The notes: a model not told the origin generated them from the letters alone. Positions 14,227 to 19,479 are shown, counted from the stretch's first letter. The stretch is 32,000 nt of DNA from Aliivibrio fischeri ES114 (GCF_000011805.1 NC_006840.2); one strand, 5' to 3'. Program-made: numbers and translations.

Positions 14227-14235
14227 TACTTTTAC

Positions 14236-15384
14236 TTATTTATCCATATGTAGAACAGTACGGATAGATTTACCTTCGTGCATTAGATCGAACGCAGCGT
14301 TTACATCCGCAAGACCCATAGTGTGAGTGATGAAGTCATCAAGAGCGAACTCACCTTGCATGTAACGGTCAACGATACCTGGAAGTTCAGTACGGCCTTT
14401 AACGCCACCGAATGCAGAGCCACGCCATACACGACCCGTTACTAGTTGGAACGGACGAGTTGAGATTTCTTGACCTGCACCAGCAACACCGATGATGATT
14501 GATTCACCCCAACCTTTGTGACAACACTCAAGAGCTGAACGCATAACGTTAACGTTACCGATACACTCGAAAGAGTAATCAACACCACCGTCAGTCATTT
14601 CAACAATCACTTCTTGAATTGGCTTGTCGTAGTTCATAGGGTTGATACAATCAGTTGCACCTAATTTTTTAGCCAGTTCGTATTTGCTTTCGTTCAAATC
14701 AACACCGATGATGCGGCTTGCACCAGCCATTTTTGCACCGATGATAGCTGAAAGACCGATACCACCTAGACCGAATACAGCAACTGTGTCGCCTTTTTCA
14801 ACTTTAGCAGTGTTAAGAACCGCACCCATACCAGTAGTAACACCACAACCTAGAAGACAAACTTCTTCAAGAGGGGCATCTTTAGATACTTTCGCTAAAG
14901 AGATTTCAGGAAGAACTGTGTATTCAGAGAACGTAGAACAACCCATGTAATGGAAGATAGTTTCACCGTTAATAGAGAAACGGCTAGTCCCATCAGGCAT
15001 AAGGCCTTGGCCTTGAGTTTCACGAACCGCTTGGCAAAGGTTAGTTTTGCCAGATTTACAGAATTTACACTCACCACATTCAGCAGTGTAAAGAGGGATA
15101 ACGTGGTCACCGACTTCAAGACCAGTTACGCCTTCACCCACCATTTCAACAATACCACCACCTTCGTGACCTAAGATTGAAGGGAAGATACCTTCTGGAT
15201 CATCACCAGATAGAGTGAATAGGTCAGTGTGACAAACACCAGTAGCAACGATGCGAACTAAAACTTCACCCGCTTTAGGAAGTTGAACATCCACTTCTTC
15301 CATTTTAAGAGGTTCGCCAGCAGCCCAAGCTACCATTGCTTTAGATTTAATGTGAGTTTGACCAGGTTTAATATCAAGCGCCAT
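14236..15384 (-). CDS. frmA: S-(hydroxymethyl)glutathione dehydrogenase / class III alcohol dehydrogenase, copy 1
   Basis: 382 aa of Zn-ADH class III type ([30 protein letters not shown] Rossmann motif). Adjacent to frmB. Confidence 0.95.
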
Positions 15385-15417
15385 TGGATTTTCCTTTTAA
15401 TATATTCGGATGAGCAG

Positions 15418-15436
15418 TCAACTAAAGCGTAGTTGA
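15418..15436. promoter_or_regulatory. 19-bp palindrome TCAACTA-N5-TAGTTGA in the frmA leader (copy 1; identical copy at 19427..19445)
   Basis: Read directly. Lies between the predicted transcription start and the frmA start codon, and is followed on the plus strand by GTTTTTTATTT. It could be an operator or an RNA hairpin. Confidence 0.3.
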
Positions 15437-15471
15437 GTTTTTTATTTCTGCTCTCTCGTTTTGATGTGGCT

Positions 15472-15500
15472 AGTATAAGTGTGAACAAGGATGTTGATAA
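15472..15500 (-). promoter_or_regulatory. Putative frmA copy-1 promoter (-35 TTATCA, 17 bp, -10 TATACT)
   Basis: Minus-strand hexamers at 15500-15495 and 15477-15472. Homologous to the copy-2 promoter. A degenerate LTTR-type box TTACGGTTATGTAA lies at 15524-15537. Confidence 0.4.
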
Positions 15501-15662
15501 TCCCCATAAAATGAAAATGATTTTTACGGTTATGTAATAATAAGCGTAAATATAGAGTATTTATGGAGTAGATATCTCAGTTTAAAAGGGAAATATGAAA
15601 TGAGACCTGACAAAGGTGGGTCATATAGATATGCTGCTTGTATTAAAGGAGTATGAATAAAT

Positions 15663-16037
15663 ATGAGCCAATGCAGTAGTAAAATTTGGGGACTATTTTT
15701 AATTTTGCTTGTGGTGTTTTCAGCAGGTTCTTTTGCTGCATCTCAAGTTAATACTTCATTATCTTCTAGTGAAACCACTACGCCTTATCAAAAGTCCTCA
15801 TCAATTATAAACGCTTTGGTTATTTCTGATTGTGCTCAATGGGATCATGATCTGTCATTAGGCTACAGTTCAGAGCGACATCATTGTTGTGCATCTGTGT
15901 GCTTATTAAAAATGTCATGTGGTCAATCTTTAGTGGTTACGCATTCTCTTTTAAGTTCTTTAGCTTTGATTAATGTGGATCAAGCTGAAAAAACCATCGT
16001 ACGTAATCAAACCTTATTTCGCCCTCCAATTGTGTAA
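15663..16037 (+). CDS. Hypothetical secreted Cys/His-containing protein (124 aa)
   Basis: Signal-peptide-like N-terminus (KIWGLFLILLVVFSAGSFA-AS), a central ERHHCCASVCLLKMSC cluster and a C-terminal LFRPPIV. Sits 60 nt upstream of dsbA on the same strand. It loosely recalls DUF2946-type proteins, but that is from memory and unverified. Confidence 0.5.
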   Translation: MSQCSSKIWGLFLILLVVFSAGSFAASQVNTSLSSSETTTPYQKSSSIINALVISDCAQWDHDLSLGYSSERHHCCASVCLLKMSCGQSLVVTHSLLSSLALINVDQAEKTIVRNQTLFRPPIV

Positions 16038-16758: not shown

Positions 16759-16768
16759 TTGCATGACA

Positions 16769-18046
16769 TTATGCAGGGATATTTTGTGTGAACACTTCTT
16801 TGTTAGCTGATTCTTTTTGCCACTTATCAATAACCAAAGCCGCAATCATATCTCCCTCAACGTTAACCGCTGTTCGGAAAGTATCAAGTGGACGTTCAAT
16901 AATTAATAAGATCGCAATGGCTTCTAGAGGGATCCCAGCAGCTAACAGAACCAGTTGCATACCCGACATAGATCCTGATGGCATACCAGGAGCGCCAACA
17001 GATGATACCATTGCCATAATAAAGATCATGACTAACCCTGAGGTTGTTAAATCGACCCCAAAAAGTTGAGCTAGGAATATAGCAGCAACACCTTCAAATA
17101 GCGCTGTTCCATCCATATTCATTACCGCACCAAGTGGTAGCACCATACTGCTTGTACTTTGAGATACCCCTAGTTTTTCTTGTGCGCTTTGCATTGCTAG
17201 AGGCAGAGTTGCAGAGCTAGAAGAGGTAGCAAATGCCATCGCCATTGGAGCTGAGATCGCTTTAAATAAGGTCGTGTATTTAATGCCTGTCGCTATTTTA
17301 GCTATTGTTGGTAAAACAATTGCGCCATGAATTAAAGTAAGAACAAAGACCAGTAAAGCAAACAGAGCTAATTGTTGAAATAAAGACTCGCCACCTCGGA
17401 CAGTAAAATCAAAAACAATGGCAAACACAGCTAATGGAGCTAGGCGAATAATCCAACCTACTAGTGTATTAATGCTTTTATTTAAACCGCTGAGCACATC
17501 AAAAACAGGATGCTTTTCTGGTAGTGATGAAAGTAAAGCCAGTCCCAACATAAATGAAAACATAACGATAGCGAGTAAGTTCCCATTGGTTAATGCTGCA
17601 ACAGGATTTACTAAAGCCATATTTAATAACTTACTTGCAATGGCTGCGCCACCAGCGGCTTCTTCACTAATGAGCTGAACATTGTCACCAACAGGAGCAA
17701 ACTCTGTAAGAGGTTGCCATGCAGGCATCAATAATGATGCACCTAAACCAAGAGATATCGCTAATAATGTGGTGAAACTGTAAAACAATAACGTATTTCG
17801 ACCTACTTGTTTTAAGCGGGTGATAGAGCCAATGCTTGTAATACCTTGAAGTAAAGAAAGCATTACCACTAAACCGACCACCATTTTGAGTAAACCAATA
17901 TAGGTAATTTTTCCTAACATGATTACTTGGTACCAAGCCGCTTGGGTTACGTCAGTTGTTGGAGAAATAAATAGTGTAATAAACCAAGCAAGTAATGCTG
18001 CTAGTAGTAATTGCAGAGGCAAAGAATGACGAAGTTTGTTCCACAT
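16769..18046 (-). CDS. Dicarboxylate/amino acid:cation symporter (DAACS, GltP/GltT-like)
   Basis: 425-aa polytopic protein with the SSSATLPL and NMDGTALFEG signature motifs of the DAACS family. The substrate cannot be told from the sequence. Confidence 0.85.
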   Translation of the reverse strand: MWNKLRHSLPLQLLLAALLAWFITLFISPTTDVTQAAWYQVIMLGKITYIGLLKMVVGLVVMLSLLQGITSIGSITRLKQVGRNTLLFYSFTTLLAISLGLGASLLMPAWQPLTEFAPVGDNVQLISEEAAGGAAIASKLLNMALVNPVAALTNGNLLAIVMFSFMLGLALLSSLPEKHPVFDVLSGLNKSINTLVGWIIRLAPLAVFAIVFDFTVRGGESLFQQLALFALLVFVLTLIHGAIVLPTIAKIATGIKYTTLFKAISAPMAMAFATSSSSATLPLAMQSAQEKLGVSQSTSSMVLPLGAVMNMDGTALFEGVAAIFLAQLFGVDLTTSGLVMIFIMAMVSSVGAPGMPSGSMSGMQLVLLAAGIPLEAIAILLIIERPLDTFRTAVNVEGDMIAALVIDKWQKESANKEVFTQNIPA

Positions 18047-18126
18047 AATGATTATTCCAGTTACTTTGAAAAATGTTGCTTTATACGTTTATTAAAAGAT
18101 GGCTCCTTTAATAAACGCATGCAGTA

Positions 18127-18165
18127 TAAAAAATAAAGTCCGTTAAATTAAATCTAACGGACTTT
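18127..18165 (-). terminator. Rho-independent terminator for frmA copy 2
   Basis: Perfect 11-bp stem aaagtccgtta / taacggacttt with a 9-nt loop. On the minus strand it is followed by AUUUUUU. Confidence 0.75.
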
Positions 18166-18189
18166 GATATTAAGTGAATTACAATGTTT

Positions 18190-18241
18190 TAGACCCTAGA
18201 CCCTAGACCCTAGACCCTAGACCCTAGACCCTAGACCCTAG
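18190..18241. repeat. Heptanucleotide microsatellite (TAGACCC)x7 + TAG
   Basis: Seven perfect 7-bp units giving seven CTAG tetranucleotides in 52 bp. The array ends 3 nt from the frmA copy-2 stop codon, at the repeat boundary. Confidence 0.97.
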
Positions 18242-18243
18242 TT

Positions 18244-19479
18244 CTTATTTATCCATATGTAGAACTGTACGGATAGATTTGCCTTCGTGCATTAGATCGA
18301 ACGCAGCGTTTACATCCGCAAGACCCATAGTGTGAGTGATGAAGTCATCAAGAGCGAACTCACCTTGCATGTAACGGTCAACGATACCTGGAAGTTCAGT
18401 ACGGCCTTTAACGCCACCGAATGCAGAGCCACGCCATACACGACCCGTTACTAGTTGGAACGGACGAGTTGAGATTTCTTGACCTGCACCAGCAACACCG
18501 ATGATGATTGATTCACCCCAACCTTTGTGACAACACTCAAGAGCTGAACGCATAACGTTAACGTTACCGATACACTCGAAAGAGTAATCAACACCACCGT
18601 CAGTCATTTCAACAATCACTTCTTGAATTGGCTTGTCGTAGTTCATAGGGTTGATACAATCAGTTGCACCTAATTTTTTAGCCAGTTCGTATTTGCTTTC
18701 GTTCAAATCAACACCGATGATGCGGCTTGCACCAGCCATTTTTGCACCGATGATAGCTGAAAGACCGATACCACCTAGACCGAATACAGCAACTGTGTCG
18801 CCTTTTTCAACTTTAGCAGTGTTAAGAACCGCACCCATACCAGTAGTAACACCACAACCTAGAAGACAAACTTCTTCAAGAGGGGCATCTTTAGATACTT
18901 TCGCTAAAGAGATTTCAGGAAGAACTGTGTATTCAGAGAACGTAGAACAACCCATGTAATGGAAGATAGTTTCACCGTTAATAGAGAAACGGCTAGTCCC
19001 ATCAGGCATAAGGCCTTGGCCTTGAGTTTCACGAACCGCTTGGCAAAGGTTAGTTTTGCCAGATTTACAGAATTTACACTCACCACATTCAGCAGTGTAA
19101 AGAGGGATAACGTGGTCACCGACTTCAAGACCAGTTACGCCTTCACCCACCATTTCAACAATACCGCCACCTTCGTGACCTAAGATTGAAGGGAAGATAC
19201 CTTCTGGATCATCACCAGATAGAGTGAATAGGTCAGTGTGACAAACACCAGTAGCAACGATGCGAACTAAAACTTCACCCGCTTTAGGAAGTTGAACATC
19301 CACTTCTTCCATTTTAAGAGGTTCGCCAGCAGCCCAAGCTACCATTGCTTTAGATTTAATGTGAGTTTGACCAGGTTTAATATCAAGCGCCATTGGATTT
19401 TCCTTTTAATATATTCGGATGAGCAGTCAACTAAAGCGTAGTTGAGTTTTTTATTTCTGCTCTCTCGTTTTGATGTGGC
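18244..19479 (-). repeat. Direct repeat copy 2 (1,236 bp)
   Basis: See copy 1. Degenerate homology continues to about 19550. Confidence 0.95.
18245..19393 (-). CDS. frmA: S-(hydroxymethyl)glutathione dehydrogenase / class III alcohol dehydrogenase, copy 2
   Basis: The protein is 100% identical to copy 1. Divergent from the LysR regulator gene. Confidence 0.95.

Follow-up and report, generated by a model that had tools for sequence, protein, structure and literature searches.

An old duplication of frmA in Aliivibrio whose two copies are very probably kept alike by gene conversion

Duplicated bacterial genes can evolve in concert, as do tufA and tufB of Salmonella and Escherichia coli, two copies that lie far apart on the chromosome and are homogenised by RecA-dependent gene conversion. 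Direct repeats such as rrn operons and insertion sequence (IS) elements lead to deletion or amplification of the segments that they flank. Glutathione-dependent formaldehyde detoxification is encoded by frmRAB in E. coli and by adhC-estD elsewhere, and accessory DsbA paralogues with dedicated partners include DsbL/DsbI-AssT of uropathogenic E. coli and SrgA of Salmonella. A survey of long-lasting concerted evolution comprises 26 cases, including tuf and tkt of Vibrionales (PMC6053082); frmA is not among the genes in the excerpt of its table, and the word 'dehydrogenase' is absent from the text of the paper. Here we describe a 32,000-nucleotide stretch of Aliivibrio fischeri ES114 (GCF_000011805.1, NC_006840.2; hereafter the window) in which two near-identical copies of frmA bracket an insert, a duplication for which our literature searches found no published description. 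Unlike the tuf genes, the frmA copies are direct repeats 2.8 kb apart; the same recombination can delete the segment between them, and natural deletion alleles exist.

Four proteins of the window are identical to ES114 entries (AAW85141.1, AAW85142.1, VF_2594 and AAW85150.1), which places it on chromosome I. The ES114 genes are arranged as tadA-lysR / frmA-U - terminator - SDF symporter - (dsbA2 - small open reading frame [ORF]) / frmA-D - frmB. Throughout, U denotes the lysR-side copy of frmA, D the frmB-side copy, X the insert between them and A-X-A the two-copy layout. We consider it very probable that the two copies are kept alike by gene conversion, that they stem from an old, genus-wide duplication, and that the insert has been lost in some lineages.

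An ungapped comparison of the two repeat copies (Table 1) at an offset of 4,009 bp revealed 3 mismatches in 1,236 bp (14257, A/T; 14272, A/G; 15157, A/G), and the same pair was recovered by a repeat search of the window. Because both ORFs translate into an identical 382-aa protein, all three differences are synonymous, and both copies pass the FrmA equivalog model TIGR02818 (765.2 bits versus a cutoff of 543.95). Outside the block, identity reaches background within 20 nt on both sides. An older homology of ~65% identity continues for 71-72 nt further upstream (15471-15542 versus 19480-19550), beginning at TATTATTAC; this point is ~150 nt upstream of the ATG, with ~18 nt left to the start codon of lysR. 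Paralogous homology thus extends from TATTATTAC to the frmA stop codon, indicating that the duplicated unit consisted of the promoter plus frmA, ~1.3 kb in all. Much of this anatomy had been noticed in an earlier interpretation made from the window alone (the sequence-only reading): the near-identity of the copies at the 4,009-bp offset, the degenerate flanking homology, the terminator and the microsatellite were all recovered, and its gene calls (frmA, frmB, dsbA, a DAACS symporter and LysR) are backed by TIGR and Pfam models.

The same layout is present in other species of the genus. A. wodanis 06/09/139 (LN554846.1, L096) carries the full insert at the same chromosomal site, a second A. wodanis locus (L011) has the small ORF and dsbA2 between its frmA copies at that site with the symporter absent, and a genome labelled A. 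salmonicida (L013) carries the full insert at the same locus. The outgroups V. tubiashii, A. kagoshimensis and a further relative with an 84%-identical LysR have a single lysR / frmA-frmB. In all Aliivibrio and outgroup loci examined, frmB lies downstream of frmA, and lysR adjoins frmA divergently in all Aliivibrio and Vibrio loci examined.

Comparison of the 72-nt promoter core between species revealed identities of 87-94% among U promoters and 80-96% among D promoters, against 63-72% between U and D. Since the promoters are orthologous by position, the duplication is much older than the species compared, and these alignments place it before the split of A. fischeri from the wodanis/salmonicida/logei clade. 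Such position-specific orthologous flanks were found in A. fischeri, A. wodanis and the A. salmonicida-labelled genome.

In contrast to the promoters, the coding sequences group by genome. Synonymous divergence (dS) between frmA-U and frmA-D was 0.011 in ES114, 0.091 in A. fischeri MJ11, 0.050 in A. wodanis L096 (wodB), 0.184 in A. wodanis L011 (wodA) and 0.205 in the A. salmonicida-labelled genome, compared with 0.25-0.45 for same-position copies between species and more than 1.5 against the outgroups. In all five genomes, the within-genome value lies below every between-species value; paralogues within a genome are closer than orthologues between species. A neighbour-joining tree likewise paired U with D by genome, with bootstrap values of 91% for ES114, 98% for A. 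fischeri L006, 100% for wodB and 84% for wodA. Coding sequences that group by genome next to promoters that group by position indicate that the copies have been homogenised by gene conversion.

Conversion within A. fischeri was assessed by a pairing-permutation test together with counts of private shared variants. Across seven A. fischeri genomes, no fixed U/D difference was found, and the true U-D pairing gave the minimum mean distance among all 5,040 permutations (p about 0.001). ES114 possesses 2 private variants, each present in both of its frmA copies, and further variants that are specific to one strain and occur in both of its copies appear in the table of variable sites (L006 and L009 are examples). 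The copies of the other six two-copy genomes differ at 8-30 of 1,236 positions, showing that the three-mismatch identity is specific to ES114.

The ends of the homogenised tract are equally informative. In ES114, the identity block starts 2 nt beyond the -10 box and extends 1 nt beyond the stop codon, so that non-coding identity steps from ~65% to 100% 2 nt after the -10 box. The block spans essentially the predicted transcribed unit, with transcription starts predicted near 19474 and 15465 on the minus strand, and is the whole span with homology high enough for exchange. The U and D leaders of A. wodanis and A. salmonicida are distinct and are set apart by, among other changes, a 15-nt indel. 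U has a D-type leader in all A. fischeri genomes, also in those with one copy. The final 11 nt of the tract, at its 5' end, vary among A. fischeri strains: the U copies of ES114, L002 and L007 read GCCACATCAAAACGAG, the D type, while MJ11, L005, L006 and all single-copy strains read CACCCAACAAGACGAG, the U type also found in A. wodanis and A. salmonicida, and L009 is intermediate or mixed. These strain-variable ends show separate conversion events with different end points, and the tract as a whole shows the discrete boundaries and mosaicism of concerted evolution.

The 86-nt leader also has a structural feature of its own. It can form an extended hairpin (GAGCAG...UCAACUA-CGCUU-UAGUUGA-CUGCUC; -17.1 kcal/mol, z = -4.1), and the palindrome is kept in the D-type leaders of other Aliivibrio species. 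Candidate roles for it are an RNA element and a dyad that binds a protein. An Rfam scan of positions 13000-21000 at a permissive threshold returned only sub-threshold chance matches, none of them in the leader or promoter.

The A-X-A arrangement is real and polymorphic in A. fischeri. An exact-protein look-up with FrmA yielded ten A. fischeri loci, six with A-X-A and four with lysR / frmA-frmB and no insert; A-X-A genomes include MJ11 (CP001139.1), CP160629.1 and several megabase-scale contigs. The single-copy alleles come from the finished genome CP092712.1 and three draft genomes and consist of the U promoter, a D-type leader, frmA and frmB. All of them join leader and U promoter at the same point as the U copy of MJ11. 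A two-copy ancestor is expected to yield just such an allele when its repeats cross over, and A. salmonicida LFI1238 (FM178379.1) has an equivalent single-copy structure.

A different outcome was found in logei-like Aliivibrio genomes (L108-L117), which we take to be A. logei (e.g. ASAH01000004.1). Their 728-nt lysR-frmA spacer (e.g. L109, 6273-7000) contains a U-promoter remnant, a decayed dsbA2 and an intact D promoter. The decayed gene is a 200-nt stretch, 67% identical to dsbA2, that is oriented as expected and is interrupted by stop codons across the CxxC region. This content indicates that frmA-U and the symporter were removed there by a different deletion.

Flanking sequences connect single-copy and two-copy strains of A. 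fischeri. The single-copy L004 has 3 differences from the two-copy L006 and L009 in 3,500 bp of right flank, and the single-copy L003 and L010 have 4-6 differences from the two-copy L005 in 1,510 bp of left flank. The pattern suggests a minimum of two independent losses within A. fischeri, or spread by recombination.

Conceivably, populations of A. fischeri and A. salmonicida had a single copy to begin with, and A-X-A spreads through them by flank recombination via natural transformation instead of being lost time and again. Mosaic flanks do attest to frequent allelic exchange, as in L005, whose left flank resembles L003/L010 and whose right flank resembles L006/L004, and a regain of X by flank recombination would be mechanistically easy. 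We nevertheless judge this scenario improbable. The single-copy A. fischeri alleles place a D-type leader on a U promoter and thereby imply a two-copy ancestor, the logei-like scar records loss rather than absence, and A-X-A occurs in both branches of the deepest divergence covered by the sample.

A recent insertion on the line leading to ES114, by a single crossover with a circle or transforming fragment carrying an frmA homologue plus X, or by a fresh tandem duplication, would explain the near-identity of the copies simply by their youth. The mere 3 differences in 1,236 bp and a geometry that fits a single-crossover product agree with it, yet we regard it as very unlikely. A. wodanis and the A. 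salmonicida-labelled genome have the same layout with orthologous U and D promoters, the 8-30 U/D differences given above separate the copies in other A. fischeri strains, and the promoters adjoining the identical block are only ~65% identical. Furthermore, dS between species is 0.87-0.96 for the SDF symporter, 0.96-1.4 for lysR and 1.1-1.8 for frmB. The genes of X are thus as diverged as the flanking genes, which speaks for the entire structure having been inherited vertically.

Purifying selection and codon bias might, without any conversion, hold old paralogues similar. The gene is highly constrained: nonsynonymous divergence (dN) within genomes is 0-0.009, and the effective number of codons (ENC) of frmA, 29.8, is the lowest in the window, where guaA and guaB have values of 35.6-36.0 and most other genes lie at 38-49; the unusually low between-species dS of frmA points the same way. 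We consider this account highly improbable, because constraint cannot bring paralogues that predate speciation closer than orthologues, and U and D pair by genome. The lack of fixed U/D differences in A. fischeri, the ES114 private variants in both copies, and the sharp, strain-variable step in non-coding DNA also stand against it.

That one frmA was written twice in assembly, or that the copies were homogenised by polishing, is scarcely credible: short-read assemblies do break here and leave X on orphan contigs of ~2.8-3.9 kb, but those contigs end inside the repeat, as expected of a true A-X-A, the layout is resolved in MJ11, CP160629.1, LN554846.1 and several megabase-scale contigs, and the two copies lie in different flanks and still differ at 3 positions. 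Drafts of A-X-A genomes normally break at the repeat, with X on a contig whose ends fall inside frmA. In the GTDB representative strain (L016), X occupies a 2,819-bp contig ending inside the repeat, and many other assemblies have it on contigs of 2.8-3.9 kb. The orphan contigs recorded for L016, L097, L098 and L012 measure 2-4 kb.

Several observations weigh against an old duplication homogenised by conversion and subject to loss. Between species, frmA has a dS of ~0.35, two- to five-fold below the values of all its neighbours (0.66-2.3), and occasional exchange of frmA alleles between species is a possible source of this low value. Exchange between strains also shapes the copies, as the mosaicism of the flanks makes evident. 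Crossover mapping against the nearest two-copy relatives gave a divided picture, in which L004 looks like a U/D chimera and L003 and L010 are U-like throughout. Finally, of the four single-copy A. fischeri loci, three are known from draft assemblies, where collapse of the repeat is possible, although drafts of A-X-A genomes normally break there and strand X on an orphan contig, as in L016. The low between-species dS is probably due to codon bias; transfer between species, considered as its explanation, was set aside, since no gene in the window has a stronger codon bias than frmA.

We therefore retain concerted evolution of an old duplication, for which the following course of events is very probable. 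A [promoter + frmA] unit of ~1.3 kb was duplicated, converting lysR / frmA-frmB into lysR / frmA-U - X - frmA-D - frmB, where X is the small ORF-dsbA2 pair with or without the SDF symporter. Since then, homologous recombination between the direct copies has taken two forms. Non-reciprocal conversion homogenises the coding sequence in each genome, and in A. fischeri the 5' leader as well, with the promoters remaining outside at ~65-70% identity. An occasional reciprocal crossover drops X and one copy, leaving U promoter - frmA - frmB. The exchange is presumably RecA-dependent.

This scheme shares several elements with the sequence-only reading. The single lysR / frmA-frmB of the outgroups fits its split ancestral locus, the within-genome dS values, genome-wise pairing and position-wise promoters support its ongoing gene conversion, and the natural genomes with U promoter - frmA - frmB and no insert match the loop-out that it predicted. 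On the whole that reading stands, with the qualification that the duplication is old and genus-wide and not a recent insertion.

Two origins of the structure are equally compatible with the data: a tandem duplication of promoter and frmA followed by insertion of X, or a Campbell-type single crossover with a circle bearing an frmA homologue plus X. The D promoter keeps the TTAC-N6-GTAA dyad and a -35/-10 spacing as in U and the single-copy outgroups, which is most simply explained by duplication of a resident sequence. The conserved divergent arrangement and the dyad would be consistent with LysR control of both copies. Both frmA copies are intact in all genomes examined, with very low dN. The codon bias of frmA, the strongest in the window, fits high expression and putative selection for dosage, and suggests high enzyme demand as a reason for keeping two copies.

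The duplicated bidirectional promoter may also have rewired regulation, placing the dsbA2 module and the second frmA under the same regulator. The D side keeps a LysR-type dyad and a promoter-like site at the lysR-driving position, facing the small ORF-dsbA2 operon; we regard such rewiring as conceivable, if rather doubtful. If true, a periplasmic disulfide module and a second frmA with high expression would answer to one formaldehyde/S-nitrosoglutathione-sensing regulator. A module dropped by recombination or regained by transformation would then amount to a natural on/off dosage polymorphism with relevance to host colonisation.

Analysis of the insert revealed a core that is not confined to this locus. 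The small ORF, VF_2594, encodes an N-terminal hydrophobic signal or transmembrane segment, a variable linker, an HHCCxSxC motif and a C-terminal LFRPPI; across its family, the conserved elements are H-H-C-C-x-S-x-C-L-L-K and the C-terminal L-F-R-P-P-I. The protein evolves fast, with 40-47% identity between Aliivibrio species versus 79-83% for DsbA2. It has no Pfam family, a single sub-threshold 'Conotoxin' match being disregarded. A word-indexed homologue search returned its own cluster only, and an exhaustive search of 1.8 billion proteins yielded about 20 small representative relatives along with some low-complexity noise.

DsbA2 contains the DSBA fold domain (PF01323) and scores below the DsbA equivalog cutoff (NF008198, 161 bits versus 279), a combination that identifies it as a DsbA-family paralogue and not the primary DsbA. 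A contig scan with the DsbA2 profile recovered one Aliivibrio locus only, the other Aliivibrio loci being obtained through exact-protein look-ups, and ~65 dsbA2-type loci of Vibrio and related genera. In most of these ~65 loci the small ORF lies directly upstream of dsbA2; none has a detectable frmA match within 7 kb, and no SDF symporter match lies within 7 kb of dsbA2 in the Vibrio loci recovered. The dsbA genes found downstream of a kinase-like ORF (HGDCHPGNILW motif, L082-L095) are a different gene, 54-59% identical to dsbA2. The pairing of small ORF and dsbA2 across Vibrionaceae indicates that the core of X is a native module of the family and not foreign DNA.

Signs of mobility were likewise sought. 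As the sequence-only reading had noted, no transposase or integrase occurs among the window ORFs of at least 100 aa. In place of the att-type junction repeats of an integrated element, the sole flanking repeat is frmA itself, and the flanking repeats encode FrmA (TIGR02818) instead of the insertion sequences of a composite transposon. The GC content of X, 0.34-0.41, is the same as that of its surroundings.

Table 1. Features of the frmA locus in the ES114 window
Feature	Position	Strand	Evidence or remarks
frmB/fghA, S-formylglutathione hydrolase, downstream partner of frmA-D	13176..14018	-	TIGR02821, 373.6 bits versus cutoff 281.7
Hairpin with weak T tail, between frmA-D and frmB	14204..14226	-	terminator-like scan match
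Repeat copy 1 = frmA-D	14235..15470	-	coding sequence 14236-15384 plus 86-nt leader 15385-15470
D-type promoter region	15471..15542	-	promoter scan and alignment; ~65% identity to U type
D promoter	-35 (TTATCA) starts 15500; -10 (TATACT) ends 15472	-	spacing 17
D dyad, TTAC-N6-GTAA	15524-15537		inside D-type promoter region
Small ORF VF_2594, 124 aa	15663..16037	+	exact match to ES114 VF_2594
dsbA2, DsbA/DsbL paralogue, CPHC active site	16098..16697	+	PF01323, 81 bits
SDF/DAACS family symporter	16769..18046	-	PF00375, 297 bits
Intrinsic terminator after frmA-U	18135..18165	-	14-bp stem, then ATTTTTTATA
Heptamer microsatellite (TAGACCC)x7.4, abutting the frmA-U stop codon	18190..18241	.	TRF score 104
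Repeat copy 2 = frmA-U	18244..19479	-	coding sequence 18245-19393 plus 86-nt leader 19394-19479
U-type promoter region, common to frmA-U and divergent lysR	19480..19550	-	promoter scan, 10/12 matches
U promoter	-35 (TTATCA) starts 19508; -10 (TATAAT) ends 19481	-	spacing 16
U dyad	19532-19545		inside U-type promoter region
LysR-family regulator, divergent from frmA-U	19568..20440	+	PF00126 and PF03466

The 3' ends of the two copies are marked by different, conserved hairpins. The sequence of the hairpin 3' of frmA-D is identical in MJ11 and A. wodanis, and a hairpin equivalent to the terminator of frmA-U occurs in MJ11, A. wodanis and the A. salmonicida-labelled genome. The (TAGACCC)n microsatellite is hypervariable, with 4, 6, 2+3, 8, 7, 8 and 7 copies across seven A. 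fischeri genomes, and neither A. wodanis nor the A. salmonicida-labelled genome has it 3' of frmA-U.

Several further features of the neighbourhood were recorded. In A. wodanis L096, a gene for a 546-aa methyl-accepting chemotaxis protein (4216-5856) lies between frmA-D and frmB, separating the genes of the detoxification pathway. The LysR protein is 97-99% identical between A. fischeri and other Aliivibrio species although its gene has a dS of 0.96-1.4, and it is far more conserved than the neighbouring TadA (80-87%) and MltF (89-91%). The single-copy genome CP092712.1 (L003) carries three rve-family IS copies around the locus (4417-5645, 7051-8279 and 12244-13484), and upstream of its tadA, nan and SIS genes replace the mltF-purL of other strains. 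Within the window, the purL coding region (24001-27000) has a GC content of 0.48-0.50, compared with ~0.38 in the rest.

The locus has practical consequences, ES114 being the standard laboratory strain for the squid-vibrio symbiosis and the repeat a near-perfect direct one of 1.2 kb. Reads and variant calls in either frmA copy of this strain are ambiguous, short-read assemblies break at the repeat and strand the insert on an orphan contig, and a clean frmA knock-out requires the removal of both copies. Gene-content surveys based on drafts may accordingly miscount frmA and misjudge how dsbA2 and the symporter are linked.

Compared with described detoxification operons, the A. fischeri locus shares FrmA and FrmB that pass their equivalog models and the gene order frmA then frmB. 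It differs from frmRAB in having a divergent LysR-type regulator in place of FrmR and in carrying two frmA copies, of which frmA-U is monocistronic with its own terminator and frmA-D precedes frmB. In common with DsbL and SrgA, dsbA2 encodes a second DsbA, with a predicted CPHC active site, beside a putative small exported Cys-containing protein in most Vibrionaceae loci. Here, however, the partner is a ~120-aa protein without a Pfam family, and a DsbB/DsbI-like gene is not adjacent.

With rrn and IS direct repeats, the locus shares the A-X-A geometry and the predicted products, namely a single-copy deletion plus a circle, or A-X-A-X-A. It differs in that the repeat is a complete promoter and gene unit, and the amplification product was not observed. 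With tuf-like duplicates, the frmA pair shares functional paralogues that predate the species and whose similarity within a genome exceeds that of orthologues between species, together with high expression or codon bias and a homogenisation confined to the homologous stretch. Its time-scale is that of a genus, unlike the hundreds of millions of years of the long-lasting cases.

Collectively, the frmA locus is an old, genus-wide duplication under concerted evolution with recurrent loss, a process of a known kind and not surprising in principle. With it, the small number of bacterial genes for which concerted evolution is known grows by one. Furthermore, its alleles occur in nature in four states (intact, lacking the symporter, popped out and scarred), a compact system in which gene conversion and direct-repeat deletion can be measured in a naturally competent bacterium.

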